From the IMG/VR virus record IMGVR_UViG_3300027333_000001: 64,000 nt of DNA. One strand, 5' to 3'. Position numbers and translations under genes: made by a program. This DNA is from a virus (taxonomy: Duplodnaviria; Caudoviricetes). The notes under the pieces are model-generated. The model had not been told where the DNA came from. It did no database searches and was given only the letters and a program-made list of their open reading frames with translations. Positions 3 through 60,897 of the stretch are shown in pieces (positions within the stretch are counted from its first letter, which is position 1; every line of letters begins with the position of its first letter).

Positions 3-1652
3 CCAAAGGAATCACTAAAAAGAGCAAGTCTTGCATATTGTGGTGGTGATTTAGAATTAGCAGATCGTATTTACCAATATGCAGTCAATGGCTGGTTTAT
101 GTTCTCATCACCTATCTTGTCTAATGCTAGACTAAATGGTGATAAAAAAGCAGGCTTGCCTATTTCCTGCTTTTTGTCTTTTGTTGATGATTCACTAGAA
201 GGTCTTATTGACCATTCTAATGAATTAAGATGGATGAGTGTTTTAGGTGGTGGTGTAGGTGGACATTGGTCTTCTGTGCGAACAGTATCAGATAAAAGCC
301 CCGGTCCTATTCCTTTCATTAAGACCATTGACAGTGATGTTGAAGCCTATAGACAGGGCAAAACAAGGAAGGGATCTTATGCCTGCTATTTAGATGTCAG
401 CCATCCTGATATTATTGAATTTCTTAATATCCGTGTACCTACAGGTGGCGATACAAATAGAAAGTGTTTCAATCTCAATAATGCAGTCAATTTATCTGAT
501 GCTTTTATGCAAGCTGTTTTAGATGATGCAGATTGGAATTTAGTAGATCCACATAATAAACAAGTAAAAGAAACTGTTAAGGCAAGAGAATTATGGCAAA
601 GAATTTTAGAAGTGAGATTTAGAACAGGTGAACCTTATTTCTTTTTTAGTGATACTGCTAATAAACATTTGCCACAATCCCTTAAAGACAAAGGTCTTAA
701 AATTCATGGCTCAAATCTCTGCTCGGAGATATATTTACCCACAGATAAAGACAGATCAGCTGTGTGTTGCTTATCTTCATTAAATATTGAGTATTTTGAC
801 GAATGGAAGGACACCAGCATTATTGAGGACTGTATTACTTTCCTAGATAATGTCTTGCAGTATTTTATTGATACTGCTCCAAAGCAATTACATAAAGCTA
901 TCTACTCTGCTATGCACGAAAGAAGTTTAGGTTTAGGTGCTATGGGTTTCCATTCTTATTTACAAAGAAAGAATATTGCCTTTGAATCAGCTATTGCTAA
1001 AAGTGTTAATATGAAAATCTTTAAGACTATTAAAGAAAGAGCAGTTAAGCAAACTGAAGAACTAGCTAAAACAAGAGGTGAGTATTTAGATGGTGTAGGT
1101 ACAGGTAGAAGAAATAGTCATTTATTAGCTATTGCACCTAATGCAAATTCAGCTATTATTTTAGACACATCACCAAGTATCGAGCCGTGGAAATCTAATG
1201 CCTTTACACACAGAACAAGAGCAGGCAGTTTCTTAACAAAGAATAAATACCTAGATAAGATTTTAGTAGAGAAGAATTTACCTAAAGAAGAATATGATTC
1301 TATTTGGCAATCTATCATTTTAAATCAAGGTTCTGTACAGCATTTAGATTGTTTAACAGATTACCAAAAAGATGTATTTAAGACAGCATTTGAACTAGAT
1401 CAGATGTGGCTTATTGAACATGGTGCAGATAGACAAGTACATATTTGTCAAGGTCAATCTTTAAACCTATTTTTTCCATCAGGTAGTGATAAAGCATATG
1501 TAAATGCAGTACATATTATGGCTTGGAAAAAAGGTCTTAAAGGTTTGTACTATTTAAGAACGAATACAGGTGTTGTAGCTGAAAAGGTTTCAACCAAAAT
1601 AGAAAGAAAAGCACTCAAAGATTATGATGAGTGTATTGCTTGTCAAGGATAA
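3..1652 (+). CDS. nrdA: Ribonucleoside-diphosphate reductase class Ia alpha subunit (5'-truncated by the window)
   Basis: Frame is open from the left edge (PKESLKRAS...WFMFSSP). Motifs PISCF, GSNLCSEI, LGLGAMG, AIAPNANS, GLKGLYY and C-terminal CIACQG. Confidence 0.95.
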   Translation, partial: PKESLKRASLAYCGGDLELADRIYQYAVNGWFMFSSPILSNARLNGDKKAGLPISCFLSFVDDSLEGLIDHSNELRWMSVLGGGVGGHWSSVRTVSDKSPGPIPFIKTIDSDVEAYRQGKTRKGSYACYLDVSHPDIIEFLNIRVPTGGDTNRKCFNLNNAVNLSDAFMQAVLDDADWNLVDPHNKQVKETVKARELWQRILEVRFRTGEPYFFFSDTANKHLPQSLKDKGLKIHGSNLCSEIYLPTDKDRSAVCCLSSLNIEYFDEWKDTSIIEDCITFLDNVLQYFIDTAPKQLHKAIYSAMHERSLGLGAMGFHSYLQRKNIAFESAIAKSVNMKIFKTIKERAVKQTEELAKTRGEYLDGVGTGRRNSHLLAIAPNANSAIILDTSPSIEPWKSNAFTHRTRAGSFLTKNKYLDKILVEKNLPKEEYDSIWQSIILNQGSVQHLDCLTDYQKDVFKTAFELDQMWLIEHGADRQVHICQGQSLNLFFPSGSDKAYVNAVHIMAWKKGLKGLYYLRTNTGVVAEKVSTKIERKALKDYDECIACQG

Positions 1653-1658
1653 GAAAAA

Positions 1659-1874
1659 ATGAAGAAGATTATCTCTGCCTTATTACTTTATGATCTCAAT
1701 AAAGATTTTTTAGATGCACATGAAAATGAAGATGTATCTGATGTGGATTTAAATGAACCTGTTATTATTAATAAGGCAGGCATGATCTTAAGAAATGAAA
1801 AACCACTTATTAAGGTCTTACAGTCAAAAGACTTGGTAAATGTTTATTACCAATTGGGAAATGAAAATGAGTAA
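1659..1874 (+). CDS. Small hypothetical protein between nrdA and nrdB
   Basis: 71-aa ORF with AAGGA-like RBS, tightly coupled to both neighbours; no recognisable motif. Confidence 0.5.
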   Translation: MKKIISALLLYDLNKDFLDAHENEDVSDVDLNEPVIINKAGMILRNEKPLIKVLQSKDLVNVYYQLGNENE

Positions 1875-2841: not shown

Positions 2842-3929
2842 GATTTTAAATAGATAACATACTCGCAATATTTCCAATTCTTAATTCTTTTAATACCTAC
2901 AATTTTAGCTGATGTAGGCTCTGCTAAAACTTCATAATAAATTGCCCACGGATCACCCATGTAATGCGAATGAATATAATCTAGTGTTGGTCTTGCATCT
3001 AAGGCAATATCTTCTTTAGGTGGTCTTACCCAAATAAGCAGAATACTGCCACCATAAACAACTTCATGTTCAGGATACCTATAGCTGTCAACAGCATCTT
3101 TTAAAGAAGACCAGCTTTTAATGCCACGAACAAGTATTTTAAAATATCTTTTAGCTTTCTCACTTAAATCTTTTTCTAAAATAACTTCTTCTTTACTGCC
3201 ACAAGTGGTTTCAAAAGAATCTTCTAGTTCAGAATAAAAAAGTTCATTCACTAATGCTCTATACAGATAATGGTATTGACCTTTAGGAAACCTATTACCA
3301 ATCTCTTTAATTCTCTTAATAGAAGAGAATGTGTGTTTATTAAAAGTTTGGTGTCCTTTTAAAGAGTACAGAAATCTTAAATCGTCTATGGATAAAAATT
3401 CGCTTTGTTCATATTCTTCATCATCATCACTAGGATGAATAAGTGATTTCAATTTTAAAAAAAGATTTTTCTCAGGTTGTTTTTCTATTTTTGTACCCCA
3501 AGAAATCCATGAAGGTACTTCAGATAAAAGACCTTTCAAAGTGTTAGATGATACACTTCCATCATAATAATAGTCTGTCCATTTATAGTTATATGTCGAT
3601 CCATTTTTAGACACTACTAGAAGATACATATTACCTAATGGTGGATTGATAGGTTTTAAGACACAGGCAAAATAGCTATCATGTGCTATGCAATAACCAC
3701 CTTCTACAATTTCATCATTTTTGATACCAAAAACTTTACCTCGACCATCTCTAAATTCAGAACAATATTGTTCTGTCCAGCTATTAAGATCTCTTTCTGC
3801 TCTTGATAGTCTTGGATATTTCTTTTTTAGATCACTATTTGTCTTTAGGAAATCTAACTCAAAAAAATCATCACCATAAGTTTCTTCTATTATTTCTTTA
3901 AATTTATTAAATAATGTTATATCTGACAT
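2838..3929 (-). CDS. Hypothetical protein with possible C-terminal R-S-E ADP-ribosyltransferase-like domain
   Basis: 363-aa ORF with SD. LYRAL...SWSS...YEVL in ART-like order; the domain call is inference only. Confidence 0.55.
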   Translation of the reverse strand: MSDITLFNKFKEIIEETYGDDFFELDFLKTNSDLKKKYPRLSRAERDLNSWTEQYCSEFRDGRGKVFGIKNDEIVEGGYCIAHDSYFACVLKPINPPLGNMYLLVVSKNGSTYNYKWTDYYYDGSVSSNTLKGLLSEVPSWISWGTKIEKQPEKNLFLKLKSLIHPSDDDEEYEQSEFLSIDDLRFLYSLKGHQTFNKHTFSSIKRIKEIGNRFPKGQYHYLYRALVNELFYSELEDSFETTCGSKEEVILEKDLSEKAKRYFKILVRGIKSWSSLKDAVDSYRYPEHEVVYGGSILLIWVRPPKEDIALDARPTLDYIHSHYMGDPWAIYYEVLAEPTSAKIVGIKRIKNWKYCEYVIYLKS

Positions 3930-3975
3930 GACTGCACCTTTCTGTTTTAAGAAAGGTTTCTACATTTAAAACTTA

Positions 3976-4779: not shown

Positions 4780-4886
4780 TTAGAAATCCTTTTTATTTAA
4801 GATACCATTGAAACACTTAGGATTGAGATTTATTGCAACCTTATTAAAAATTCTTATGTATTGTCTTTTGAAAGGATGACAAAAAA

Positions 4887-5286: not shown

Positions 5287-7377
5287 ATGCCATTTTATGT
5301 AGCTAAAGTCATGGGGCAAGTTTTTGCTAATGCTCCTTATTATGTTTTAAGGTGTATCGTTTATTCCGATACAAAATCCGAAGCTAAAACCATCAAAGGT
5401 AAAATCATTGGTAATACAGAAAGAGATAGCTATATCCTTTTTGAAGGTAAAGAAATTCAAGAAACCTATCAAGGTGTTACTAAGCCAGCTATTGAAGTTT
5501 TAAGATCACCTATTGATCCAAAACAACTTAAAGGTCTTGCTTTAAATGAATGGCAAAAGCAATCTAGTCCTGAAAAGAATAAAACCTATTCCATCGCAAG
5601 CAATCTTGTTTCCTGTGGTATTAATCCTAAAATCTTAAATTCTATTTGGTCTATCATTTCAAGAAATCCACAAGAGATTTTAGATAATGCTTGGCTACTT
5701 GTAGATTATGGTATTCCTTTTAAGACAGCTGATCAAATTGCCTTAACTCTTAATCCTACTTCTTATGATCTTAAAAACACTAATCGTATGAAAGCCTGTG
5801 TAAAAGAAGCTATTCATCAATCTGTTATAGATGGCAACTGCTATTTAGACAGTAAAAGTATTTTTGAAAGTGTCTTAACTAACACAGGTGAAACTGATCC
5901 AAGTAAAATTGCTTTGCTTATTAAAGAAATGGTCAATGATAAACAGATCATCATTGAGAAAGCATATCATGGTAATGCTATTTACCTTCCTAATATTCAT
6001 CGTATGGAAACAGATGTAGTAAATTATTTAACAAATCCAGATAGACGAAAAGGTCAAAGAGAAACTATTAGCTATATTAAATCACATAGTAAATACGATT
6101 TAACAGAAGATCAAATTGAGGCTATCCAAAGAGGACTTGAACAGCCTATCTCTATTGTATCAGGTTTGCCCGGGACAGGTAAAACTACAATCCTTTCCGT
6201 GTTATGTTCTATCTTAAAAGAAAAGAAAGAAACTTTATTATTAGTAGCACCTACAGGTATTGCATCTAAACGATTAGCATCTGTTGTTAAAATGGATGCT
6301 ATGACTATTCATAGAGCATTTGGAGCAGGTGGTGTGGATGATGATAAGAGTATTTTAAGCACTTATGAAGGTCTTATTAAAGATACTGATTCAAGTGTAG
6401 GCAGTGTCTTATCAAGAGATAACACTAGAGAACATTGGAATTACACACCTAATAATCCTAGACAAGAAACTATTCTTATCATTGATGAAGCATCTATGGT
6501 AGATCTTCATTTACTTTGGCGATTATTAAGAGGCATCACTTTAAATTGTAGAGTGATTTTTGTAGGTGATGTTGCTCAACTTCCACCTGTAGGAGCAGGA
6601 TTTACTTTAGCTGATATGATGGCAAGTAATAAAATCCCATCTGTGCATTTAACAAAAATCTTTAGACAAGGTGAAGGCTCAGGTGTTGTGATTGCATCTC
6701 ATGATGTTTATAATGGTCTAGTACCTACATCTAATAATGAATTTATCTTTTTAAATAACTACTCAAACCATGACATTTTAGAAACTCTTAAATCTTTATG
6801 CCTGCAACTTGAAGAAGAAGAAATTGATTACCATATTATATCACCTACTCATCATGGTGATTTAGGATGTACAAATCTTAATAAAGTTTTAAGAGCAAAA
6901 CTTAATCCTACTATTTCATCATCTGTATTAAGAATAGGCAATGATGAGATTAGAGAAAATGATAAAGTCATGATTACTCAAAACGATTATGATTTAGGTG
7001 TCTTTAATGGTGATCTAGGTAAAGTGTTTACGATTAGAAAAGATTGTGTAGATATTATTTTAAGAAGTGGAACAGGTAGCAATACAATGATTTCCATTCC
7101 AAAAGATAAAGTATCCAGCTTAATGAGATTAGCTTATGCCACTACAGTACATAAATCACAAGGTCAAGAGTATCAAGTGATTTTAATGCCATTGGTAAGA
7201 GAATTTGGCAACAGCTTAATTCAGAGAAATCTTATTTACACAGCGATTACAAGAGCAAAACAGAAAGCCTATTTAATAGGAGATATAGATGCACTTGCTT
7301 TAGGTGTTGCGAATACAAGTACAAAAGTAAAATATTCAAGATTAAAAGATAAACTTATTGAAAATAAGTGTGTTTAA
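5287..7377 (+). CDS. recD2: RecD2-like SF1B DNA helicase
   Basis: GLPGTGKTT, LVAPTG, IIDEASMVD, VGDVAQLPPVG, IFRQ, FNGDLG, AYATTVHKSQGQEY and YTAITRA. Confidence 0.9.
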   Translation: MPFYVAKVMGQVFANAPYYVLRCIVYSDTKSEAKTIKGKIIGNTERDSYILFEGKEIQETYQGVTKPAIEVLRSPIDPKQLKGLALNEWQKQSSPEKNKTYSIASNLVSCGINPKILNSIWSIISRNPQEILDNAWLLVDYGIPFKTADQIALTLNPTSYDLKNTNRMKACVKEAIHQSVIDGNCYLDSKSIFESVLTNTGETDPSKIALLIKEMVNDKQIIIEKAYHGNAIYLPNIHRMETDVVNYLTNPDRRKGQRETISYIKSHSKYDLTEDQIEAIQRGLEQPISIVSGLPGTGKTTILSVLCSILKEKKETLLLVAPTGIASKRLASVVKMDAMTIHRAFGAGGVDDDKSILSTYEGLIKDTDSSVGSVLSRDNTREHWNYTPNNPRQETILIIDEASMVDLHLLWRLLRGITLNCRVIFVGDVAQLPPVGAGFTLADMMASNKIPSVHLTKIFRQGEGSGVVIASHDVYNGLVPTSNNEFIFLNNYSNHDILETLKSLCLQLEEEEIDYHIISPTHHGDLGCTNLNKVLRAKLNPTISSSVLRIGNDEIRENDKVMITQNDYDLGVFNGDLGKVFTIRKDCVDIILRSGTGSNTMISIPKDKVSSLMRLAYATTVHKSQGQEYQVILMPLVREFGNSLIQRNLIYTAITRAKQKAYLIGDIDALALGVANTSTKVKYSRLKDKLIENKCV

Positions 7378-9523: not shown

Positions 9524-10234
9524 ATGAGTGGCTTTTCAACTTTTGAATTAGGTGGCAATTCCACCATCCTTTCAGCAAAATCAGCAAGATGGAAACCTCA
9601 AAAAGGTAAGTATCGTGTCAGTTTTGTTACTCTCCCCGGCATCGAAAATGGTCATCCTGATCACAATGCAAAAGCACCTCTTTTCAAAGGTGGTCGTAGA
9701 TTGTATCACAAGGATGTTGGTTATTTCATTGATCACGGTCCTGAATATGCAAAACTTGCAGGTGAACCATCAAAGGTAGCAATCGCAACAGTGATTGTTT
9801 TATGGCCCACAGATGCAAATGGTGTGATTGATATGAATCGCTTAAAGAAAGGTGAATTTGATCCAAAGTCTTGGATTTTCTCTCTCGATAAGTATCGTCA
9901 ATTAGAAGCAATTCAAACTGAATTTCCTTTGACACAACATGATATCACTATCACTGTTACTGATCCACAGTTTCACAAGATGTCATTTGCACCATGTAAA
10001 GACAATTTGTTTACTGCGATCAAAGCAAAAGAACCAAATCTTTATGCAAGTGTTGTAGAAGTCGTTAAAGATATTTACTCAAGATTGCAAGATGATGTTG
10101 CACAAGACTTAACTATTGATCAAGTAAGAGAAAAGTTAAGTGGAGCAGGTGGTGCTACAAGTCCTGTTGCCAAGAGTGGATTTTCAAGTAACTTTAGTGC
10201 AGATGATGTTCTAAGCAATGTACTTGATGATTAA
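9524..10234 (+). CDS. Putative single-stranded DNA-binding protein
   Basis: AAGGAG SD, own promoter (GTGGAA-N16-TATAAG at 9413-9440), beta-rich core, flexible linker and acidic tail; recombination cluster context. Confidence 0.45.
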   Translation: MSGFSTFELGGNSTILSAKSARWKPQKGKYRVSFVTLPGIENGHPDHNAKAPLFKGGRRLYHKDVGYFIDHGPEYAKLAGEPSKVAIATVIVLWPTDANGVIDMNRLKKGEFDPKSWIFSLDKYRQLEAIQTEFPLTQHDITITVTDPQFHKMSFAPCKDNLFTAIKAKEPNLYASVVEVVKDIYSRLQDDVAQDLTIDQVREKLSGAGGATSPVAKSGFSSNFSADDVLSNVLDD

Positions 10235-13623: not shown

Positions 13624-14850
13624 ATGGCAAAAGCTAACCTTTCCAAAATCGCAGGTGTTTTAAAAGCATCTCTTAAAGAAGATTTTGTAGTTCAACTTGA
13701 CGATTCTAAAGTCAATTCCACAACACCCCATGTTTCCACAGGATCAATCGCTTTAGATTATCTTATTGGTGGCAAAGAAAATGAAAGAGGTGTTAAACCA
13801 TGCCCCGGACTTCCTAGAGGTCGTATTACTAATATCTATGGCAATGCAGGTGCAGGTAAAACTACTATTGCATTACAAACTGCCGCCCAAGTTTGCCAAG
13901 CTGGTGGTACTGTTCTTTACATCGATTGGGAAAATGAAGTAGAACCTAAATATGCTCAAGCATTAGGTGTACCTGTCACTGATAAAGATAAATTCATGCT
14001 CGTTCAACCTGATACTCTTGAAACAGGTTTAAAGTACATGGCTATGTTTGCAAGAGAAGGTGTTGATCTTATTGTGATTGACAGTGTTGGCGCCGCAGTT
14101 CCACAAGCTATGTTTGAAAAACAAGATGGTGAAACACAAATGGCAGTTGGTGCTAATGCTCGTGTATGGTCTGTTTATCTTCCTAAACTAAAAAATATCA
14201 TTGCAAAGCATAATACCTGTGTGATTGGTATTTCTCAATTAAGAGAAGCTATTGGTGGCATGACATCCTTTGCGGGTCCAAAAACTACACCACAAGGTGG
14301 TAAAGCATGGCAGTATTACTCAACCTTGCAAATCAAATTATCTGTTGTTCAAAAAGAAAAAGGCAAACTTTGGGATGGTCTACAAGGTAAGATGATTGAA
14401 ACTGTAACAGGTGCAGTAGTAAGGGCACATTTAGATAAATGTAAAGTATCTGATAGTGTTCACCATGAAGTAGATTTCTTCTTAATGAGTGGCAAAGGTG
14501 TAGATAATGAAAGAACTATTATTGATCTAGCTATTAATAGTGGTGTGATCAGTAAAAAAGGTGCTTGGTTCTCATGGCAATCACCAACAGGTGAATTAAG
14601 ATCTCAAGGTCTTGCAGGTTTTAAAGAACAATTACAAGCTATGGATGGTGGTCTAGTCGCTTTGTTTACTCAAGTTAAACCTTTCATCTCTCAAAATAAA
14701 GATGGTGGTGTTGCTCCAGCAGATGCAACAGCAACTGCATCAGAAGAAAAAGCACCAGCTAAAAATAGCAAGCTAGATAAAATGGCAAGTGCTAACCTTG
14801 ATGATATGTTTGGTGATGATGATGAAGAATTTTTTGATGATGAAGAATAA
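13624..14850 (+). CDS. recA: RecA recombinase
   Basis: STGSIALD, GNAGAGKTT, YIDWEN, IVIDSV, ISQLRE, TPQGGKA and KGAWF; acidic tail; no intein. Confidence 0.93.
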   Translation: MAKANLSKIAGVLKASLKEDFVVQLDDSKVNSTTPHVSTGSIALDYLIGGKENERGVKPCPGLPRGRITNIYGNAGAGKTTIALQTAAQVCQAGGTVLYIDWENEVEPKYAQALGVPVTDKDKFMLVQPDTLETGLKYMAMFAREGVDLIVIDSVGAAVPQAMFEKQDGETQMAVGANARVWSVYLPKLKNIIAKHNTCVIGISQLREAIGGMTSFAGPKTTPQGGKAWQYYSTLQIKLSVVQKEKGKLWDGLQGKMIETVTGAVVRAHLDKCKVSDSVHHEVDFFLMSGKGVDNERTIIDLAINSGVISKKGAWFSWQSPTGELRSQGLAGFKEQLQAMDGGLVALFTQVKPFISQNKDGGVAPADATATASEEKAPAKNSKLDKMASANLDDMFGDDDEEFFDDEE

Positions 14851-16506: not shown

Positions 16507-17076
16507 CTATTTAAATAAGTGTTTCATAAGGGATTTTTTAAGTTCTTTATATTTTTCTAATTTTTCTTTTGTCTGCTCAATAAGATTATCTAGATCAGAT
16601 AAGCAAGTGGCTATTTTATGCTGTTCTTGAAAGATAGGTGTTTGAATCGCTATTATACTAACATCTTTTTTTTGAAGATTTGGTATCCCCGTACCTACTT
16701 TTCTTGACATAATATCTTTTTCGATATGCTTCAAAAATTGAAAAAGGTATTGAGTGTCAATATTTGATTTAATATTTAATAGTGTATAGCAATGACCACC
16801 TGCCCAAAAATCTTCTCTCATAAGATTTACAAATCCTGTAGATGCACCACCTTCACTAATCGTAATCGTATTAGCTGGTGTGTTATAAGAATGGTAGTAA
16901 CCTGATGGTTCTACACCACCATTTATAAATTTATATCTATTTACTATGCTTTGTTTTTCAAATAACTTTGTTTTATTGATTTGATCGCCTTTGATAATAC
17001 TTCCAACATCACCAAGTTTCTTCTCTTCCCAATCAGGAAAATTACTACCATCATTCCTCTTAAACCTTAATGTCAT
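16507..17076 (-). CDS. hsdS: Half-size type I restriction-modification specificity subunit (single TRD)
   Basis: LRFKRNDGSNFPDWEEKKLGDV N-terminal conserved region, one TRD, PIFQEQHKIATCLSDLD and KKSLMKHLF C-terminal region; about 190 aa. Confidence 0.85.
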   Translation of the reverse strand: MTLRFKRNDGSNFPDWEEKKLGDVGSIIKGDQINKTKLFEKQSIVNRYKFINGGVEPSGYYHSYNTPANTITISEGGASTGFVNLMREDFWAGGHCYTLLNIKSNIDTQYLFQFLKHIEKDIMSRKVGTGIPNLQKKDVSIIAIQTPIFQEQHKIATCLSDLDNLIEQTKEKLEKYKELKKSLMKHLFK

Positions 17077-17081
17077 ATTAC

Positions 17082-18533
17082 TCAATCCTCTAAAAGAATA
17101 TCTAAACCTAATTCTACAAGATGTTCATTCACTTTACTTGTTAAAATCTTTAAGTCTTTATTGATCTGATTGATCTGTTTTAAAGTATCTACTAAATCAA
17201 TCTCTTCTTCTTCCTCAATATTACTTATATACCTTGAGATATTTAGATTAAAATCATTATTTTTAATCTCATCTAAACTAGCCAAATGAGAATATTTAGC
17301 TATCTCTTTTCTTCCTGCATAAGTGTCTATGATTTTTTCTATATGCTGATCAGTGATAAGATTGGTTTTCTTTTCTTTAATGAAATCATTAGATCCATCT
17401 ATGAAAAGAATATCTGTATTTTGCCTATTCTTTTTTAAGACTAAAACACAAGTACCAATACTTGTATTTGTAAAGAGATTTTCAGGTAATCCTATAATAG
17501 CATCTACCAAATTCTCTTCTATTAAATGCTTTCTGATCTTTTCTTCACTAGCACCACGAAATAAAACACCATGTGGCAAAAGCACAGCTGAAATACCATC
17601 ATCTGAAAGGTGGTGTGCTGAATGCTGGACAAAAGCAAAATCTGCTTTTGTTTTAGGTGCTAATAGACCACCAAATCTAATATCATTATTAGGAGTCCAT
17701 GATAAACTATATGGTGGATTAGCAACGATTGCATCAAACTTTAAATTTAAATGTAAAGGTTGCTTTAAAGTATCACCATGCTTAATATCAAAATTATTTA
17801 AATGAACATTGTGCATAACCATGTTCATTCTACATAGGTTATATGTAGTCTTCATAATTTCTTGACCATAGAAATTATCCACAGGTATCTCTTTGGCAAC
17901 ATTTAAAAGTAAAGAACCTGATCCACAGCTTGGATCATATACATTTCTTAAAGATGTCTTATTTAAACAAACAATTTTAGATAAGACTTTGGAAACTTGT
18001 TGTGGTGTGTAGAACTCACCAAAATTTCCACCATTAAAATACTCATAGACATCACCTAAAATATCTTTTTCACCTGTCAATGATGGCATCTTATTCAAGT
18101 TATTTAAGATATGTAAAAGATCACTTTTACCAAGAGATGAGAGATTGATATTCTCAAATAAAGAACTGTCTATTTCTTTAAACACATTCTTTAAATCATC
18201 TACAATGTCTAAACCTTTATTTGCTTTTTCTACTAGAAAGCTAAATAAGAGATCTTCATTTAAGAAGAAACCTAAATCTTTAAAAGCATCTTCTTTAGAT
18301 GAGTATGTCACCATCTTTTCAGAAATATGTTTATAGAAGATAAAAGCTAAAATGAAATCTCTAAATTCCATATCAGATAATGAACCTCTAATAGAATATG
18401 CAATATCTAATAGCTTTTCTACTTTGATTTCTTCTGCATTAGATAATGCTGATTTAGTAGCAGGTTTAGATAATGCAGGTGTTTCAGATTTAACTTCTAG
18501 TGTTTCATCTTCAAATAGAGAAACTTGTTTCAT
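17082..18533 (-). CDS. hsdM: Type I restriction-modification N6-adenine methyltransferase subunit
   Basis: GEFYTPQQVS, VYDPSCGSGSLL, YGQEI, VANPPY, LPHGVLFRG and FNLNISRY; extra N-terminal MKQVSLF plus linker. Confidence 0.92.
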   Translation of the reverse strand: MKQVSLFEDETLEVKSETPALSKPATKSALSNAEEIKVEKLLDIAYSIRGSLSDMEFRDFILAFIFYKHISEKMVTYSSKEDAFKDLGFFLNEDLLFSFLVEKANKGLDIVDDLKNVFKEIDSSLFENINLSSLGKSDLLHILNNLNKMPSLTGEKDILGDVYEYFNGGNFGEFYTPQQVSKVLSKIVCLNKTSLRNVYDPSCGSGSLLLNVAKEIPVDNFYGQEIMKTTYNLCRMNMVMHNVHLNNFDIKHGDTLKQPLHLNLKFDAIVANPPYSLSWTPNNDIRFGGLLAPKTKADFAFVQHSAHHLSDDGISAVLLPHGVLFRGASEEKIRKHLIEENLVDAIIGLPENLFTNTSIGTCVLVLKKNRQNTDILFIDGSNDFIKEKKTNLITDQHIEKIIDTYAGRKEIAKYSHLASLDEIKNNDFNLNISRYISNIEEEEEIDLVDTLKQINQINKDLKILTSKVNEHLVELGLDILLED

Positions 18534-18568
18534 GTTTTTCAATCCTTTTCTTTTTCTTTTTATAAATC

Positions 18569-20220: not shown

Positions 20221-21222
20221 ATGGATTTGAATAGTAAAATACTTTCAAGTGTAATTCTTGAAAGTGAAGATGATATGAATGTTCTTTATTGGTCGCATTT
20301 AAAGGTAATGAGAGAATGTCCACAAAAATTTCTGTGGTCAAGAGGAAATCCTGAAATTGATTTAGGTGCAGGTTATGGCAAACCTAAACCTTTACCTGCT
20401 GAAGAAGAAAGAGCAAGTGAACATTATGCTTTAATGGGAAGTGTCTTATCAAGAGTAGTTGAACTTTTATATAATGATGAATTATGGAAAGAACCTACTT
20501 TATTAAGAGAAAGAGTAGAAGAAATTGCTCGTAAAGAATTTATCCTGCAGGAAGGTGGCAAATATCTTGATTGGCGAAATATGCCTAGAGAAGAGGCTAT
20601 TGCTACTTGTATAACAGGTGCAGTCAACTATCTTAAGATTATGAAACATAATAAGCTATTGGGTCCTTATGCTAGATCAGAAGTAAAAATGGAAACATGG
20701 CTAACACCAGCTATTAAAGATTTAAAGATTTGTGGTATTGCAGATTTAATCTTTAGAGATGGTAATGATAAAGTACATATTTTAGATGGTAAAAATGCAG
20801 GCACCCCGGGCAAGTATGAAGATGATGATCAGTTAAGATGGTATGCCTTATGTTATAGATTAGCTTATGGTGTAAATCCTGATCGTTTAGCTTTCTTTTA
20901 TTTCAGATTTCCACCAAATGAAAAACCTGATATTAAATTTGATGGTGATTGGAATGGCATGGTAGAAGTATCATTTACAGATGATGATATTAAAAGACTT
21001 GCCAAAGAAGCATTAGAAACACAAAAGGCAATTCAAAAGAAAAACTTTGAGCCAAATCCTGTACCAAAGCATTGTGTAAATTGTGCATATGAAAGTGTAT
21101 GTGAACCTAGACAAGCACAAAAGAAACATAACTCAGCTAAAAGAGGATTAGGCAAAACAAGTACAACAGATCCATTTGATAATAATAACAGTTTGCCTGT
21201 ATTAGATTTTGGTAAAAAGTAA
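20221..21222 (+). CDS. PD-(D/E)xK Cas4/AddB-like nuclease with probable Fe-S cluster
   Basis: ECPQKF, GIADL..ILDGK, QLRWY and CVNCAYESVC (1+3 Cys pattern). Confidence 0.8.
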   Translation: MDLNSKILSSVILESEDDMNVLYWSHLKVMRECPQKFLWSRGNPEIDLGAGYGKPKPLPAEEERASEHYALMGSVLSRVVELLYNDELWKEPTLLRERVEEIARKEFILQEGGKYLDWRNMPREEAIATCITGAVNYLKIMKHNKLLGPYARSEVKMETWLTPAIKDLKICGIADLIFRDGNDKVHILDGKNAGTPGKYEDDDQLRWYALCYRLAYGVNPDRLAFFYFRFPPNEKPDIKFDGDWNGMVEVSFTDDDIKRLAKEALETQKAIQKKNFEPNPVPKHCVNCAYESVCEPRQAQKKHNSAKRGLGKTSTTDPFDNNNSLPVLDFGKK

Positions 21223-21552: not shown

Positions 21553-22736
21553 AAATTGTAGTATCAAAAAACGATTTAAAAGAAGCATTAAACCTTGCTC
21601 AAAATGTATTAGGATCAAGTGCAGATATTACATCTCACTTTGTATTTGAAATTGATGATAAAAAGAATGTTAGTATTCTTTCATGCGAACCACCTAGACT
21701 ATTCTCTAAAGTACCTTTAACAGGATCAACTGCTGAAGGTGAAGGTCAATTTACAGTAGACGGTAAAAGACTTTTACTTGCAGTAAGCAATATTGCAGAT
21801 ACAGAAACTTTAACCTTTACTGAAAATCAAGGTACTGTTAAGTTAGCTACTACTAAAGGTACTTTGACTTTTTCATCTCTTGATCCATCTTCTTTCCCAA
21901 GCTGGTTATCTCAATATGCAGAAGCAAAAGAAGTTAAAAAGATCGCAAGCGAATTATTGCATGAAGGTTTAAATGCAGTTAAGAATTTCATCTCTGTAGA
22001 TGAAACTAGAAGACCTGAATTATGCCAAGCATCCATTAAAGATGGTTTGCTTTATGCAACAGACAGCTTTTCTATGTGTCTTGTAAAAAATCCTGTGTTT
22101 TCAGATTTTGAATTGAAAGTACATTTCAAGGATTATCCTGCACTCTTAAAATTCTTAAAAACTCATCAAGGCTATGATGTTACTTTAAGCGAAACAGATA
22201 AAGCATATTTCTTTACTGCTGAAGGCTCTTTATTAGGTTTGATGAAAACACCATTTACACCTTTCAAGATTCCGGGCAATTATGCACAGTCATTTGATTG
22301 GACACCAAGACGAGTTTGGATTTTAAATAAACAAGATTTACTACAATCTATTAACTTTCTAGGTGCAGGTGCTGATAAGAATGATTTCATTATGGCATTT
22401 GAACATCCTGAAGGTTCAATGACAGAACCAACATTGTCTATGGATTCATCTAATAGCAATGATCCATTGGTAGTAAGTATTAAACAAGCTATTCCTGAAA
22501 CAGAAGCATTAGATTTCCCAATGAAGATGTATTTTGACAGTGTGAAAGCAGAAGATAAGAAAGAAGATGTTGCCAAATTCAAGTTCAATTTCTTATACCT
22601 AAAGAAAGCAATTGAGAATTTAGGAAATGAAGTAGTCTTAGGCAGTACAAAAGAAGGTACTTATGGATATATGCTTTTAAGAGATAAGACAGCTTTAGAT
22701 ACAGATATTGTATCTATTATTGCATGGGTGAGATAA
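21549..22736 (+). CDS. dnaN: DNA polymerase sliding clamp (beta/DnaN-like)
   Basis: MKIVVSKNDLKEAL start, DPSSFP, SVDETRRPEL, YATDSF, FNFLYLKKAI; clamp-like size. Confidence 0.75.
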   Translation: MKIVVSKNDLKEALNLAQNVLGSSADITSHFVFEIDDKKNVSILSCEPPRLFSKVPLTGSTAEGEGQFTVDGKRLLLAVSNIADTETLTFTENQGTVKLATTKGTLTFSSLDPSSFPSWLSQYAEAKEVKKIASELLHEGLNAVKNFISVDETRRPELCQASIKDGLLYATDSFSMCLVKNPVFSDFELKVHFKDYPALLKFLKTHQGYDVTLSETDKAYFFTAEGSLLGLMKTPFTPFKIPGNYAQSFDWTPRRVWILNKQDLLQSINFLGAGADKNDFIMAFEHPEGSMTEPTLSMDSSNSNDPLVVSIKQAIPETEALDFPMKMYFDSVKAEDKKEDVAKFKFNFLYLKKAIENLGNEVVLGSTKEGTYGYMLLRDKTALDTDIVSIIAWVR

Positions 22737-23404: not shown

Positions 23405-24180
23405 AGACCATAGCTTGCTTTAGTAGCATTGTAATTATTAAGAATTATTGCATCGCTGATGGCATCATTCCATATATGGAAAGCACCTAATCTAAAAGTA
23501 CCGTCAGCTCCACTTAACATATTTGTACCTGACCTATAGCCTATATTGTAATAATATCCTACACCTGCGGGTCCATTATTATATGGTGTTTGTCTATTAT
23601 TTTTAGCAAAAGTTCCTGCAGGTTGACCATTTATATATCCCTTTAATGTTGAGCCATCATAAGTAAAACCTATATAATGCCAATTATTAACACTAATTGT
23701 TGCAGTAGAAAGTAATGTTGTTGAAGTCACAACTGAAGTATATTGCCAAACTCCAAATCTTACTTTATTTCCACTTACCATTTCTATTTGTGTATCATAC
23801 CATCCACCCGGTGCATCAGGTGTTGTAGAACCTTGTTCAGATAAAATAGTACCTATTATTGAGCCTATTGGATATATCCATATAAAAAGAGAAATTGTAA
23901 CACCTGTATTAGCTGGCGATAAATAAGGATTTAAACTTGTGCTTGTAGTAACATACTTACTACTACCATTATCAAAAAAGAAATAACTAGGTGTACCACT
24001 TGTATAAGGTACAGAGCCTACAACAGTACCATTAATAGTTCCATCCAAATCTGTAATTGTTGTACCTGATCCACTATATGATGATGAGTTTTGAAAATCC
24101 CAATATGTGATCATACTAGAACCTGTAATAAATACAGGTTCAGAAGATGGTTTTATTATTCCGTGTGTCGCTTTAAGCAT
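23401..24180 (-). CDS. LamG/concanavalin-like beta-sandwich protein (tail-associated, paralog of 59635-60897)
   Basis: MLKATHGI N-terminus; NNWHYIGFTYDGSTLKGYING LamG signature; end-to-end similarity to 59635-60897. Confidence 0.75.
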   Translation of the reverse strand: MLKATHGIIKPSSEPVFITGSSMITYWDFQNSSSYSGSGTTITDLDGTINGTVVGSVPYTSGTPSYFFFDNGSSKYVTTSTSLNPYLSPANTGVTISLFIWIYPIGSIIGTILSEQGSTTPDAPGGWYDTQIEMVSGNKVRFGVWQYTSVVTSTTLLSTATISVNNWHYIGFTYDGSTLKGYINGQPAGTFAKNNRQTPYNNGPAGVGYYYNIGYRSGTNMLSGADGTFRLGAFHIWNDAISDAIILNNYNATKASYGL

Positions 24181-32122: not shown

Positions 32123-32554
32123 ATGGCAAAGTTATTGACTGCTAATGAAAAAACACCCGGGTCTCCAAAGGGCGTGACTAGCTTCAAATATTCGGAAATG
32201 GAATACTATGACCGTATTCCTAAAGAACTCATTCCAAATGCTGATAAGGTTTTACAAAATCTACAAGTATTAAGAGATGTAGTAGGTAAACCAATTTTTA
32301 TCATGAGTGGGTTTAGGTCTCCAGAGAGGAATGAAGCCGTTGGTGGGGCGAAGAAATCGCAACATTGCGAGGGAAATGCCTGCGATATAAAAGTAAAAGA
32401 CACAGCACCTGAAGAAGTGGCAAAGTTGATTGAGAAATTAATTGCTGAAGGTAAAATGTGTCAAGGTGGACTTGGGACTTACTCTAGATCGACACCATCT
32501 GAGGGCTGGGTACATTATGATTGCAGAAATGTAAAAGCTAGATGGAATGGATGA
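32123..32554 (+). CDS. Peptidase M15A-family zinc peptidase (probable endolysin)
   Basis: SGFRSPERN, SQH..GNACDI and WVHYD zinc-ligand pattern. Confidence 0.85.
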   Translation: MAKLLTANEKTPGSPKGVTSFKYSEMEYYDRIPKELIPNADKVLQNLQVLRDVVGKPIFIMSGFRSPERNEAVGGAKKSQHCEGNACDIKVKDTAPEEVAKLIEKLIAEGKMCQGGLGTYSRSTPSEGWVHYDCRNVKARWNG

Positions 32555-36927: not shown

Positions 36928-39768
36928 TTAAAAGAGAGTATTTTCTTCAGTGGTTTGAATATCAAGAGATAAGAATTTGGATTGAGTAAGGATAAGAGTT
37001 TCTTTAATGACAGCAAGGATATTTACATAAAAGTCAATATCATTAAAAGAGAGAGTTTGACCTGTTCTACTTTCAAGCCAATCTTTAGCAGGACGACTTG
37101 CACCTATTTTAAATTCCCAAATGGATTTACTAGCTAAGAAATATTGAGAATCGTTGATCTTAATACGATCAATATCAAAAGAAACTTTAGAAATAACAAT
37201 ATCTGTTTTCATTTGAGTAGTGTCAAAAAAGACATCTTTGATTGAAGATATAGGTTGAGAAGGTTTAAGACTTAAATGGATTTTTCTAAGAGATGCACCA
37301 AAAGAAATAAAATAATGTAGATGTTCTTTATCTAAAGGGAAAGGAATTCTAGGATAATTTAATTTGAGCATTTGATTATTTTCTTTAAGGTATTCTTGAT
37401 CATTAAGGACACCATAAATATAGTCAATGACATCAATAGGATTGACATTAGGATCAATTTCTAAGAACTGTTTAAAGTCACTTTCATTAAAGTTATGTGT
37501 AAAGGTTTCTGAACTTAAATCAAAGTTATCTTCAAGTGGAATATAAAGAGGTGCAAAATGGCAAGAGGATTTACCAGCAAAGAAACCTGAATCGCAAAAG
37601 TTATTAAAAACAAAGGTATGGGAAAAATCATGAGAGTCTCTAACACTAGAAGAATAACCAATGTAGAAATTGCTCTTGAGTGTTTTTAGATCAGTAACTT
37701 TTTTAGCTTTGCTATTAATACCATTACACCAATGGATATGTCTATTATCCATTGGACGATAAGCGAAATCCAAAGTTTTATTAGGATCATAGACAGGTAA
37801 AGTATTGATGAATTGATCATCTGCACCTGTCTTAACACCACAGGCTTTGACTTTAAAGAAAGAGTCAATATTAAAAGAGTTGGAAAAATACTTTGAACTT
37901 GATTCATGAGTAGGAATGAAAAGGAAAGAAGAATTAAGTTCAAAGTTTAGTTTTTGGAAATTGGATTTAGTTTTAGGATTGAGAATATGGTTTAGGCAGA
38001 AATCTTTCTTATCTTCTTTTTTACCAATGATTTCATAATAATAAGTATCAGCTAAAGTATTCTTTTTAGAATCGGATTTCTTTACTAAGAAATACATAGC
38101 AACACCAATGGTAATATCAAAAACATTCTCATCATTCTTTTGATCACCATGTAAATTGATAATATAGATTTCGTCAAAAGATAAGAGTAGAGATTGTCTT
38201 AGTTTTTCATAAGATACATTTTTAAGAAATGAGTTATTGGTGATGAATGAAACAACACCTTTTTTATTTTGTTCTATGAAGTGTTGAGCCAAGCGAATGA
38301 ATTTGAGATAGTCATCATTAAGAGCATCATTAATATTTCTATCTGTTGGTTTATATTCAAGCATAAGATCATTAATATAATCTGATCTATTTGTAGAAAG
38401 ACCATTATAAGGTGGATTACCTATGATGCAGGCAAACTTTTTATTTCTGATGTCTAAGACTTTTTTAGACATACTATTGATTTCATATAAGTAATCCGAG
38501 TATTGAAAAAGGTCTTGAGATTCAAATTTTTTAGGTGGATCTAAAGTGTTGGTAAGAAATAAATTAAGAGCAGGTGTGTTTTCATTAAATATAAAACCTG
38601 TGTTTCTTAAGGTTTCTACTAATCTCATTTGAGCAATGATGAAAGGTGTCATCATAATTTCAAAACCATAAAGATTATTTAATAGTTTAGAATTTACAAG
38701 AGTATTCCATAAAGCAGTGTTTTGATTATATTCGGAATAAGCTACTTTCAGAATAGAATTGAGATAATTGCTAGTGCCTGTAGCTGGATCTAAAATATTG
38801 ATGTCATCTAGATAACCTTTAGAATATCCGATATGCTTTAATAGAGCATTTGTAGATTTTACTTGATACTCTACAATATAGTCAGGTGTGTACCAAGCAC
38901 CAAATTCTTTTCTTAATTTGGCATCATAGTGTTCAAGAAAAGTTTCATAGAAATGAATGACAACATCACCTGAATATTCCCAAACAATATTAGTCAAATC
39001 TATTTGAAGTAGTAGTGCTTGAATATCATTATAGATTTCAGTAATACGATCATCAATCTTTTTTGAGGATAAGATACTAAAGGCTTCTTCTAAGAAAGAA
39101 GATCCGATTTGAGAAACTGAATTGAGATACCTAACAATAAAAAGACCATAAGTGATGGTTTGTGCATAGAAATCTGAAAACCTAGAAACATCAAGATCAG
39201 GCATAAGTTTTTTATATGCTTCAAATTCTTGTTCTAGTTTTGTAACTTCTCTATCTTTTTTATTAGATAAGCAATTAGATACGATTTCTTTTAGCATTTT
39301 AGTTTTAACAGCTAAAAGGATTGCCAAGTCAGATGGTTTATTGCAAACCAATGGATCAGCTTTAAAATCTTGTACTGTTTTTTCTAACATTTGAACTGCT
39401 TTATTTCCTGTGTATAGAGTAGAAGGCATTAAAGTAGTTTTAGTACTTAAATTTCCTTTTTCATCTAAAAAAGAAAGTGTGTATTGTAATTGACCTTTTT
39501 TATACACATCTATTTCACGATAATTTGTAATGATATGGTTATTGTTATCTCTTATAAGAGATAGAGATTTATTATTAAGTGAACTTAAATCACTTTCAAA
39601 GTTTTTAGTTTCAATCGATGCCAAATAACGATTTCTACTTTTTAAGATTAAAATCTCTGGACTGCTCAATTCCTGCAAACTTAAATTCTCATCTATTGAT
39701 GAAAGCATTTTTTTCAAAGACTCTTTGAAAGCATTCTTACGAATATTTGATTGGTATTGCAATAGCAT
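36928..39768 (-). CDS. Type IIG/ISP-like N6-adenine methyltransferase with C-terminal TRD and degenerate N-terminal nuclease domain
   Basis: FAQTITYGLF, HFYETFL, GAWYTP, ILDPATGT, IIGNPPY, FITNNSFL, YRPMD, YIYGVL and PRIPF. Confidence 0.85.
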   Translation of the reverse strand: MLLQYQSNIRKNAFKESLKKMLSSIDENLSLQELSSPEILILKSRNRYLASIETKNFESDLSSLNNKSLSLIRDNNNHIITNYREIDVYKKGQLQYTLSFLDEKGNLSTKTTLMPSTLYTGNKAVQMLEKTVQDFKADPLVCNKPSDLAILLAVKTKMLKEIVSNCLSNKKDREVTKLEQEFEAYKKLMPDLDVSRFSDFYAQTITYGLFIVRYLNSVSQIGSSFLEEAFSILSSKKIDDRITEIYNDIQALLLQIDLTNIVWEYSGDVVIHFYETFLEHYDAKLRKEFGAWYTPDYIVEYQVKSTNALLKHIGYSKGYLDDINILDPATGTSNYLNSILKVAYSEYNQNTALWNTLVNSKLLNNLYGFEIMMTPFIIAQMRLVETLRNTGFIFNENTPALNLFLTNTLDPPKKFESQDLFQYSDYLYEINSMSKKVLDIRNKKFACIIGNPPYNGLSTNRSDYINDLMLEYKPTDRNINDALNDDYLKFIRLAQHFIEQNKKGVVSFITNNSFLKNVSYEKLRQSLLLSFDEIYIINLHGDQKNDENVFDITIGVAMYFLVKKSDSKKNTLADTYYYEIIGKKEDKKDFCLNHILNPKTKSNFQKLNFELNSSFLFIPTHESSSKYFSNSFNIDSFFKVKACGVKTGADDQFINTLPVYDPNKTLDFAYRPMDNRHIHWCNGINSKAKKVTDLKTLKSNFYIGYSSSVRDSHDFSHTFVFNNFCDSGFFAGKSSCHFAPLYIPLEDNFDLSSETFTHNFNESDFKQFLEIDPNVNPIDVIDYIYGVLNDQEYLKENNQMLKLNYPRIPFPLDKEHLHYFISFGASLRKIHLSLKPSQPISSIKDVFFDTTQMKTDIVISKVSFDIDRIKINDSQYFLASKSIWEFKIGASRPAKDWLESRTGQTLSFNDIDFYVNILAVIKETLILTQSKFLSLDIQTTEENTLF

Positions 39769-54688: not shown

Positions 54689-55235
54689 ATTTGTTTTTAA
54701 TAGATGCTAAACGAAGTCTTAAAGAAGATCGTTTACAGGTTTTTGGTCTAGGATTTTGCTCGCCATCAAAATAAGTAGTCACAATAATTGCTTTACCTTT
54801 TTTCACTTTAAAAGCTAAAAATAAGTTTCCTAATTTTCTATCAATAAAATTGATATCTGCACCTATGCGAATTGCAGATTCCCAAGTAAGATACTGTGCT
54901 GAATTTTGTGATTTCTCATTATAGTATTGCTTTACAAAGTTTCTAAGAGCAATACGAATATCGCCTGTCGTAACACCTCTTAAATCCATACGATATTGAG
55001 CATGAGAAGATAATTCAATTTCACTAATAAGTTTATTATGTTCTAAAGGTTTTTCCACTATTCTTGGATAAACTACACTTGCCTCTAAATTATCTAAATC
55101 TTCAGCATTTTCTACCTTATCAATAAGGATATTTTCAATATATCCTTCATTCAATTTATCATCTACTCTTTTCACTACTTTGCAGATACCACCCGGGTAT
55201 CCCAACATAGGATCTAAATCAGATACTCTTTTCAT
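54675..55235 (-). CDS. Protein with possible DUF4258/BECR RNase-like domain
   Basis: SSHAQYRMDLRGVT...AIIVTTY; C-terminal RLRLAS. Confidence 0.45.
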   Translation of the reverse strand: MKRVSDLDPMLGYPGGICKVVKRVDDKLNEGYIENILIDKVENAEDLDNLEASVVYPRIVEKPLEHNKLISEIELSSHAQYRMDLRGVTTGDIRIALRNFVKQYYNEKSQNSAQYLTWESAIRIGADINFIDRKLGNLFLAFKVKKGKAIIVTTYFDGEQNPRPKTCKRSSLRLRLASIKNKFNIS

Positions 55236-58911: not shown

Positions 58912-58929
58912 GTTAAGTTAATCCTTTTG

Positions 58930-59634
58930 TTAAACCATAGTTTGAGCAAATGCTTGCCAAGTGATATTAGAGAAAGTACCTGTTCTACCTACAGCAGTGT
59001 CAGTAGTTAAAGTAGCATTAGATGTAGCTAAAAGTAATAATCTTGAACCTGCTATATTAGCTAAAGGTGCAGTAGGTCTAGTGAAATTAGAGGTATAGAC
59101 AGCAGTACCTTTTACCCATCTGAAATTAGTCATCCAACCACCAAAAGAACCACCTACTGAAGGTGTAGTTTCATTACCGATAACTAAATTATTTGTAGTG
59201 TTATTGAAATTGTAATTGTTTACTAAAGTAGAACCAAATTGAGTGCCATCTTTAAAAACTTTAATATTATTAGAGGCATCTCTTGTGATTGCGAAATGCA
59301 CCCACTTGTTTTTATAGTCAGTTGTATTCATAGCAGAGCCAAAACCATTAGCACCACCATTAATCCAAAAGTAGAATTGACCACCTTCAATACTAACACC
59401 CATAAATGTAGATGGATAATTTCCGATAGCAAATATTCTAGGGAAAGAATTACTATCTGTTTGATATTGAAACCATTCGATAGTAAACTCACCTGATTGA
59501 GGATACATATTACTATCTTGACCATAGCTGATATTTGAGTTAGATGCACCTGTAAATTTCATAGTACCTACAAGAGCAAGGTCAAATGTTGATGTAGAAG
59601 AAGGCTTTAAAATGCCATGTGTTGCTTTTAACAT
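58930..59634 (-). CDS. LamG/concanavalin-like tail-associated protein
   Basis: MLKATHGI; FTIEWF, KWVHFAITR, FGGWMTNFRWVKGTAVYTSNF. Confidence 0.75.
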   Translation of the reverse strand: MLKATHGILKPSSTSTFDLALVGTMKFTGASNSNISYGQDSNMYPQSGEFTIEWFQYQTDSNSFPRIFAIGNYPSTFMGVSIEGGQFYFWINGGANGFGSAMNTTDYKNKWVHFAITRDASNNIKVFKDGTQFGSTLVNNYNFNNTTNNLVIGNETTPSVGGSFGGWMTNFRWVKGTAVYTSNFTRPTAPLANIAGSRLLLLATSNATLTTDTAVGRTGTFSNITWQAFAQTMV

Positions 59635-60897
59635 TTATTTTCCATAAGATGCTTTAGTAGCATTATAGTTGTTTAAGATTGTATCTGAACTAATAGCATC
59701 ATTCCAAACATGAAAAGCTCCAAATCTGAAATTAGCTCCAGCTCCACTTCCCATATTTATACCTGTAGGATAACCTAAAGCATAATATAGACCTTTAGTT
59801 AAAGTATTATATGGTGTTTGTCTTATTCTAGTAGATGATCCTGCTGATTGACCATTAACATAAGCATTTAAACTAGTACCATTATAGGTATATCCTACAT
59901 AATGCCATGTGTTTAAAGATGCAGATACAGAAGAAGTTATTGTAGAGCCCGGATTCAATTCAGATGATTGAAAAGAATAAGTACCTTGAGATGGTCTTTT
60001 CCATACAACAATAAGACCTTCACCACCACCATATTCTTGATACCTTGCTCTAAAAGAATATTTAATACCTGCTGTTAAAGATACATTACCATATACGGGT
60101 CCACTCATACCATGTCCACCATAATAACTTGTTACAAGACTTCCACCTATAAAGACATCACCACCATCATCAGAATTAACACCGAAAGAATAAGTACCTG
60201 TTTCAGCAGGTATAAAAGTAGCAGATACTTCAACAGAAAAAAAATCACCACCATTAGGTACAGTAGCACCTGCATTTGTTAAAGTAACATAACTAGAATG
60301 GTTTAAAGATGTAGTACCTGCCATAGTACCTTCCCAAGCTAAAGTAGTATTACTATATGCTGTATTAAATAGCTTATCGAAATCACTTGTTATTGTAGGA
60401 TATTGTCCATATTGAGAAGTAGAACCATTGCCACCATGAGTACTATATATTTTAACATTAGTTATATTAGAATATGGAAATACCCCAAATCGAGGTGTTC
60501 CACTTACCCATTCTATTGTAGATAAATACCAACCTGAATTTGGTGTTGTAGAACCTAATTCAGATACAATCACACCATTAGATGTAGGATAACACCATAC
60601 AAAAACAGATATGTTATCACTTGTGTTAGCAGGTGATAAGGATGAGTTTAAGTTGGTAGTTGATCTTAAATAATTACTAGCACTAAGATCAAGAGATAAG
60701 TATTTAGGTGAAGCATTAGTAAAAGAGTTTGTACCAACAAGTAAGCCATTATTTGTGCTATCTAAATCAGTGATAGTAGTACCTGATCCACTATAAGAAG
60801 ATGAGTTTTGGATATCCCAATAAGTGATCATAGATGCACCTGAGATAAAGGTATATGTAGATGTTTTAGACAAGATACCATGTGTTGCAGTAAGCAT
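59635..60897 (-). CDS. LamG-like protein with an inserted PA14 domain
   Basis: ATG 60897; LamG halves match 23401-24180; insert has YSFGVNSDDGGDVFI and RARYQEYGGGEGL. Confidence 0.75.
   Translation of the reverse strand: MLTATHGILSKTSTYTFISGASMITYWDIQNSSSYSGSGTTITDLDSTNNGLLVGTNSFTNASPKYLSLDLSASNYLRSTTNLNSSLSPANTSDNISVFVWCYPTSNGVIVSELGSTTPNSGWYLSTIEWVSGTPRFGVFPYSNITNVKIYSTHGGNGSTSQYGQYPTITSDFDKLFNTAYSNTTLAWEGTMAGTTSLNHSSYVTLTNAGATVPNGGDFFSVEVSATFIPAETGTYSFGVNSDDGGDVFIGGSLVTSYYGGHGMSGPVYGNVSLTAGIKYSFRARYQEYGGGEGLIVVWKRPSQGTYSFQSSELNPGSTITSSVSASLNTWHYVGYTYNGTSLNAYVNGQSAGSSTRIRQTPYNTLTKGLYYALGYPTGINMGSGAGANFRFGAFHVWNDAISSDTILNNYNATKASYGK

Follow-up and report, generated by a model that had tools for sequence, protein, structure and literature searches.

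The pentanucleotide CCWGG (CCAGG or CCTGG) is missing from a 64,000-nucleotide stretch of DNA of a virus assigned to Duplodnaviria and Caudoviricetes (IMG/VR record IMGVR_UViG_3300027333_000001; this whole stretch is hereafter called the window), and we attribute the gap, with a probability of about 0.78, to restriction-site avoidance recently acquired in the lineage of this phage. Restriction avoidance is the best reading of the loss because the loss is independent of strand and codon phase, synonymous and derived, and carries no signature of deamination. A first-pass annotation, made by reading the sequence, had reported the absence of CCWGG and estimated that about 20 sites should have been found; it suggested an exact count against a codon-preserving shuffle and a Markov model. 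This count, which like all window counts below covers 64 kb of the phage genome, bears out the absence: there is no CCWGG on either strand, whereas base composition predicts 26 sites, shuffling with dinucleotides preserved 33.3±5.9, a Markov model of maximal order 18.7, and a set of 200 within-gene synonymous-codon shuffles 17.7±2.7 (minimum 11), where genes are longest-open-reading-frame calls. The estimate of about 20 sites was sound as well; the four nulls range from 17.7 to 33. The synonymous shuffle places 8.6, 5.2, and 4.3 sites in the three codon phases, all of which are empty in the window. The under-representation of the site is confirmed under both composition-preserving and coding-preserving nulls.

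The protein-coding counterpart of this absence is an unusual choice of proline codons before glycine. Pro-Gly blocks both common proline codons because CCA followed by a glycine codon gives CCAGG and CCT gives CCTGG. Every Pro-Gly in the window is encoded with CCC or CCG (Fisher p = 1.7e-15), codons that together comprise 4% of the proline codons (CCT 332, CCA 227, CCC 13, CCG 11). The word CCSGG yields 16 matches at 11 loci, versus 3.0 expected, or 2.0±1.5 by synonymous shuffle, and 11 of the 11 loci are in-frame Pro-Gly in genes of either strand; these are exactly the coordinates at which the first-pass annotation had located 11 Pro-Gly pairs, all written CCS-GGN.

Another line of evidence comes from comparison with related phages. 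A search with the RecA/UvsX-like recombinase of the window retrieved a family of uncultured phage contigs of 220–485 kb; among deposited phages, no close match to the window was found. The nearest relative, hereafter the sister (IMGVR_UViG_3300046779_001841; 316,221 bp, rated complete), encodes a recombinase that is 96% identical to that of the window, and about 30 kb of the two sequences are alignable at 81% nucleotide identity. Given this family of large contigs and the 316-kb sister, the window is part of an uncultured jumbo phage. The comparison set consisted of the sister genome, tiled as L044–L059, plus fetched related loci, which likewise carry L numbers. Nine CCWGG sites of the sister can be aligned with the window, which has lost all of them (9/9), in each case synonymously: eight are replacements of CCW-GGN by CCS-GGN, and one turns CCC-TGG into CCG-TGG. 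The eight Pro-Gly sites, all on the plus strand, lie in the ribonucleotide reductase alpha gene (300..305, CCC-GGT in the window, CCA-GGA in the sister), in the Walker A region of a RecD2-like helicase (6169..6174, CCC-GGG, sister CCT-GGT), at 9635..9640 (CCC-GGC, sister CCT-GGT), in the Cys-Pro-Gly of the recombinase (13804..13809, CCC-GGA), and in the genes for a PD-(D/E)XK nuclease (20806..20811, CCG-GGC, sister CCA-GGT), a DnaN-like clamp (22272..22277, CCG-GGC, sister CCT-GGT), a phage metallopeptidase (26876..26881, CCG-GGT, sister CCT-GGT), and an endolysin-like M15 peptidase (32156..32161, CCC-GGG, sister CCA-GGT). The ninth site is a Pro-Trp on the plus strand (1185..1190), where the CCC-TGG of the sister holds CCTGG, so that the site was removed in a different codon phase. 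The three Pro-Gly pairs of the window on the minus strand fall where the sister is gapped (23806..23811, CCG-GGT) or carries a different residue (55191..55196, CCG-GGT; 59947..59952, CCG-GGC). The Cys-Pro-Gly of the recombinase is kept in 41 of the 43 related loci, and its proline codon is CCA or CCT in the sister and in the low-GC outgroups L003–L005, with CCC found only in the window; Pro-Gly is mostly written with CCW in the other relatives, too. With the sister, the outgroups, and most relatives thus agreeing on CCA or CCT, the state of the window is the derived one, and the loss of CCWGG in its lineage appears to be recent.

The purge extends beyond CCWGG. The second most depleted tetramer in the window is CCAG/CTGG (64 versus 213), and the base following CCAG in the 64 occurrences is C in 52 cases, A in 11, T in one, and G in none. 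Put differently, CCAGD and its complement HCTGG (D, any base except C; H, any base except G) are found 12 times versus 184±12 expected, and CCAGC 52 times versus 39. A depletion confined to CCWGG was looked for in the window and was not found, the wider CCAGD set being lost as well. Because every CCWGG holds CCAG on one strand, a purge of CCAGD at large would by itself empty the window of CCWGG; at the residual rate of CCAGD, about 1.3 CCWGG sites would remain, which is statistically inseparable from 0. CCWGG is therefore not secure as the exact target, which may be something other than an EcoRII/Dcm-type site. The first-pass annotation, which had proposed avoidance of a CCWGG-specific restriction system, is right about the kind of process (both strands, all phases, synonymous, derived) and about the contrast between CCWGG and CCSGG (0 versus 16 matches), but too specific on the target, the whole CCAGD/HCTGG set having been purged. 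The codons bear the same mark: proline before G-initial codons other than those for glycine is written CCT 130 times and CCA 22 times in the window, and ACT-GG, TCT-GG, and GCT-GG of the sister are mostly ACA-GG, TCA-GG, and GCA-GG there. Among the relatives, the NCTGG words behave separably: L042 lacks CCWGG only (ACTGG 36 versus 33), ACTGG and CCWGG but not TCTGG are depleted in L009 and L028–L030, and all NCTGG words are depleted together in L006–L011 and L012. These patterns lean towards several enzymes with overlapping sites, rather than one CCAGD system, as the probable agents. The spared CCAGC sites of the window show no flanking consensus in a test for a Chi-like extended motif.

Several observations indicate that the pressure operates at the level of DNA. 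Whatever the orientation of the gene and the codon phase, ACTGG and CCAGT are scarce, with 1 and 0 occurrences in the window compared to 217 and 184 in the genes of the sister. Because the depletion is symmetric across gene orientations and codon phases, it is not a translational codon-pair effect. There is strong support for selection that acts on DNA to remove the site. The changes at orthologous sites replace the central W by S, rather than C by T; the products expected from deamination are not enriched (CCAAG/CTTGG, 77 versus 88.5 expected; CCTAG/CTAGG, 42 versus 44), and no Pro-to-Leu changes were seen.

Abandoning CCWGG at Pro-Gly comes at a price because the substitute contains CCGG, another word that the window avoids. 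All 11 CCGG sites of the window reside within the Pro-Gly CCSGG loci, and outside Pro-Gly, DCCGGH is represented by 0 sites versus 6.8±2.4 when the rarity of CpG is preserved, or versus about 15 by synonymous shuffle. The claim of the first-pass annotation that CCSGG is tolerated has to be restricted accordingly: CCGG beyond Pro-Gly is absent, and CCSGG at the Pro-Gly of the window is the lesser of two costs. The sister presents the mirror image. Of the 91 CCWGG sites in its genes, 83 coincide with an in-frame Pro-Gly, those in other phases show mild avoidance (9 versus 24.6 expected), and CCGG is found 5 times versus about 76 expected. Both phages avoid CCGG and CCWGG, and Pro-Gly is always encoded by CCNGG; hence Pro-Gly imposes a forced choice, which the sister has settled in favor of CCWGG and the window in favor of CCGG. 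The use of CCS arose at least twice in the family, in the window and in the L006–L011 clade, and distant loci that are free of CCWGG also write Pro-Gly with CCS (7/7 in L042 and 17/17 in L029). The surroundings of the 11 CCS-GGN sites in the window are rich in G and C as well: the codon before the proline ends in G or C in 7 of the 11 (14% overall), the glycine codon does so in 6 of the 11 (17% baseline), and CCCGGG is present at 5 of the 11 sites versus about 0.15 expected. This excess may stem from avoidance of WCCGG-type or ACCC words, or from imported GC-rich patches.

The two phages also differ in their methyltransferases. A C5-methyltransferase, Vsr, or an EcoRII-like nuclease was not detected among the 50 window proteins scanned. 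The window encodes two N6-adenine methyltransferases, both on the minus strand and both in segments that the sister lacks, namely, a type I system consisting of hsdS (with one specificity domain) and hsdM (16507..18542, within an insertion at about 16285–19202), and a type ISP/IIG-like enzyme whose specificity domain is C-terminal (36928..39768, within a block at 32714–40672). The sister encodes five C5-methyltransferases (PF00145), a family that is represented by zero members in 8 of the 10 other large relatives. Two of the five are in tandem (L062:392-1501 and L062:1495-2625; G001 3922-6155), and the other three are on L060, L061, and L063. The tandem pair lies in a 2.4-kb insert between nrdA and nrdB; in the window, these two genes are separated by about 110 bp (1753..1863). 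The two tandem enzymes are 63% identical to each other and diverge in the region of the specificity domain; their alignment to E. coli Dcm (about 26% identity) is restricted to the catalytic core, and their matches to solved structures are weak, none of them linking the specificity domain to an enzyme whose target is known. The names of their homologues are uninformative with respect to specificity, and when viral contigs were searched with the first tandem enzyme, the sister alone was retrieved. The sister tolerates the NCTGG words (ACTGG 414 versus 282, TCTGG 518 versus 282, GCTGG 319 versus 127). It is tempting to think that self-methylation and the loss of sites trade off against each other, but this is unproven; conversely, the N6-adenine methyltransferases of the window might protect some of the words that are purged by the sister.

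The pressure on unavoidable sites seems to have reached the protein sequences themselves. The Pro-Gly dipeptide occurs at 0.33 of the expectation in the window and at 0.47 in the sister; within the same gene neighbourhood, the values are 0.34–0.46 in other relatives that avoid CCGG and 0.94–0.99 in those that avoid neither word or CCWGG alone. When the dipeptides of the window and the sister combined were ranked (expected count, 25 or more), the five furthest below expectation were Ala-Ala (0.10), Gly-Pro (0.25), Trp-Pro (0.28), Pro-Trp (0.30), and Pro-Gly (0.45), all of which are at 0.83–1.12 in non-avoiding relatives. Each of the five forces a recognition-type word regardless of the codons used: GCNGC, GGNCC, TGGCC, CCNNGG, and CCNGG, respectively. 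Pro-Gly is kept at 8 of the 8 aligned window-sister sites, with none lost, so that the depletion of the dipeptide predates the split between the two phages. The number of Pro-Gly per RecA orthologue (1.4 versus 2.2) is consistent in direction, on a sample that is too small. A literature search on avoidance at the level of dipeptides found nothing relevant. In a broader scheme that we advance tentatively, at somewhat short of even odds, Pro-Gly would act as a forced-choice sensor, the flip between its two solutions would be coupled to gain or loss of tandem C5-methyltransferases that protect CCAG-core sites, and restriction pressure would have stripped the proteins of dipeptides with unavoidable sites.

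Restriction avoidance probably unfolded as follows. A DNA-targeting defence in the host population would have cut genomes carrying CCWGG, or the broader CCAGD/HCTGG, sites, and variants that lost sites by point mutation would have taken over until zero sites were left. Within genes, the route would have been synonymous, from NCT-GGN to NCA-GGN and, where CCA precedes G, to CCT; at Pro-Gly, the rare codons CCC and CCG alone would offer an escape, and would have become fixed at every pair. The latter change would re-create CCGG, which the window otherwise avoids, implying that a CCWGG/CCAGD site was costlier than CCGG in this lineage, with the reverse being the case in the sister. That the selective agent was a restriction endonuclease, which exact sequence it would recognise, and that the lineage may have had to purge its sites for want of the C5-methyltransferases found in the sister are inferences rather than results. 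Three points weigh against this reading. No cognate enzyme was identified, and the best bacterial matches of the phage HsdM are only 36–38% identical and scattered across phyla, making them uninformative on the host. The absence was counted in the 64-kb window, not genome-wide. Finally, the target motif is ambiguous between CCWGG and CCAGD, and avoidance of asymmetric type III/IIG sites is reported to be rare to absent (PMC6286503), so that a single CCAGD system as the target would be unusual.

The question of a single system nevertheless deserves consideration because the figures for the wider purge given above can be read as the loss of one asymmetric motif, CCAGD (HCTGG on the other strand), under pressure from one system, with CCWGG lost as its palindromic subset. 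The contrast between CCAGD and CCAGC, the statistical equivalence of about 1.3 residual CCWGG sites to none, and the joint depletion of all NCTGG words in L006–L011 and L012 favor this possibility, whereas the separation of the words in L042, L009, and L028–L030 suggests several enzymes with overlapping sites. Enzymes are known for ACTGG (BsrI-type) and for CCWGG (EcoRII/BstNI-type); no characterised enzyme with CCAGD as its target is known to us, and our literature searches found neither such an enzyme nor anything relevant on a CCAG-specific system. On balance, we regard a single CCAGD system as possible but rather doubtful. A related proposal, which would refine rather than replace restriction avoidance as the explanation, is that the purge followed a difference in methylation, such that the tandem C5 pair of the sister protects CCAG-core sites and the lineage of the window deleted them instead. 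The abundance of C5-methyltransferases in the sister compared to their rarity in the family, the position of the tandem pair exactly at the short nrdA-nrdB spacer of the window, and the divergence of the specificity regions between enzymes of 63% identity, as expected for a pair acting on the two strands of an asymmetric site, are all compatible with this proposal, as is the fact that the sister avoids no NCTGG word and the window purges three of the four. However, the alignment with Dcm is limited to the catalytic core, structure matches and homologue names are uninformative, and the genome of the window phage beyond the 64 kb may encode such enzymes, so that we consider this proposal unlikely as it stands.

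The remaining alternatives fare worse. A modification-dependent trigger, whereby CCWGG methylated in the manner of Dcm is attacked by the type IV nuclease of the next host and loss of the sites would keep the phage from being marked, is compatible with a complete purge, and many of the purged sites are classic C5 targets (GCGC, GGCC, CCGG, GCWGC, CCWGG, ACGT); yet words that are not typical C5 targets (AAGCTT, TTCGAA) are purged equally, and the five C5-methyltransferases of the sister would be harmful if methyl-cytosine was the main liability in this host pool, which renders this scenario improbable. Codon-pair effects exist in general, and the window does encode PD-(D/E)XK nucleases along with many proteins without a family assignment, which leaves some room for a translational preference or for a phage nuclease whose own sites the phage must lack. 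The translational model was rejected on the symmetry of the depletion across strands and phases, and the lack of an EcoRII-like nuclease, Vsr, or a C5-methyltransferase among the scanned proteins argues against the phage nuclease; taken together, we give these two ideas very little credence. Mutation bias, by which deamination of 5-methylcytosine would erode CCWGG to CTWGG or CCWAG without selection, is the least credible of all: the central-base changes from W to S, combined with the lack of excess of CTWGG and CCWAG, exclude such an origin, and it was rejected.

CCWGG is one of dozens of recognition-type words purged from the window. Counted on both strands and compared with the synonymous-shuffle null, these include ACGT (0 observed, 107 expected), CGCG (0, 11), ATGCAT (0, 49), ACCCT (0, 40), AACCG (0, 27), GCWGC, counted as GCAGC (1, 9), and GTCTC (5, 35), as well as GGCC (48 expected), GCGC (39 expected), and AAGCTT (56 expected), each of which has 2 observed matches from one site read on both strands; TTCGAA, RCATGY, GCTAGC, and GAGCAC are at zero as well. 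CpG reaches 0.27 of its expected frequency in the window. Most relatives (L006–L027) are completely devoid of ACGT and GCGC, down to 57% recombinase identity and across 31–49% G+C, which suggests that avoidance of these two words is much older than the CCWGG purge. The sister, in turn, purges CAATTG, GATATC, TCTAGA, CGATCG, and GACAG/CTGTC, all of which the window tolerates. Separately, GGAG/CTCC is found 53 times in the window versus 177 by synonymous shuffle, and AGGAG 15 times versus 74, a depletion that could mean that Shine-Dalgarno-like sequences are kept out of genes, or that a further restriction target is avoided. The distant contig L042 has a profile of its own, with GATC at 0 versus 77, CCWGG at 0 versus 24, GCWGC at 0 versus 24, and an excess of CCSGG (52 versus 18).

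In overall organization, the window has 31% G+C, and 91% of it is in open reading frames under the standard code. Its genes encode both ribonucleotide reductase subunits, a RecD2-type helicase, the RecA/UvsX-like recombinase, a DnaN-like clamp, SbcCD/Mre11-like proteins, a PD-(D/E)XK nuclease, a GroEL-like protein, an M15 peptidase, and large proteins with lectin-like domains, in addition to the two N6-adenine methyltransferases; no tRNA genes were found in the 64 kb scanned.

Three features go beyond the routine here: the sister phages have flipped their forced choice, the loss of CCWGG is nested in a CCAGD purge, and the proteins carry a dipeptide footprint. The two phages amount to a natural experiment, in which genomes that are about 81% identical have arrived at opposite solutions for Pro-Gly, each with its own sets of purged words and methyltransferases; the rate at which avoidance profiles turn over, the trade-off between avoidance and self-methylation, and the reshaping of dipeptide composition by restriction thereby become testable. 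The list of purged words can be viewed as a fingerprint of the host restriction repertoire and could aid host assignment.

Compared with known systems, the missing palindrome of the window is the site of EcoRII, BstNI, PspGI, and Dcm, and the window keeps CCSGG. These enzymes do not recognise CCAGT or CCAGA, to which the depletion in the window extends, and the tandem enzymes of the sister are not Dcm-like (about 26% identity). BsrI-type enzymes are type IIS restriction endonucleases acting at ACTGG, and the near-complete loss of ACTGG/CCAGT from the window (1 versus about 65 expected) would fit them, but this target would leave the loss of CCWGG and TCTGG unexplained. The situation is also reminiscent of self-protection by orphan phage methyltransferases, given that the sister, with five C5-methyltransferases, tolerates words purged by the window, and the window, with two N6-adenine methyltransferases, tolerates CAATTG, GATATC, TCTAGA, and GACAG, which are purged by the sister; with two genomes compared, the match between enzymes and tolerated words is no more than correlative. 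The closest parallel is the elimination of sites as an anti-restriction strategy of non-temperate double-stranded DNA phages, mostly against orthodox type II enzymes (PMC6286503). As in the virulent double-stranded DNA phages surveyed by Rusinov et al. (2018, PMC6286503), a short word, one among many, is purged fully and synonymously, and, like those avoiders, the phage of the window looks non-temperate and large. Unlike them, it has purged unusually many words, its avoidance footprint reaches dipeptide composition, and the avoided sets differ sharply despite the identity of about 81% between the two phages. The lack of CCWGG is thus real and not new in kind, a very clean and striking instance of a known strategy.

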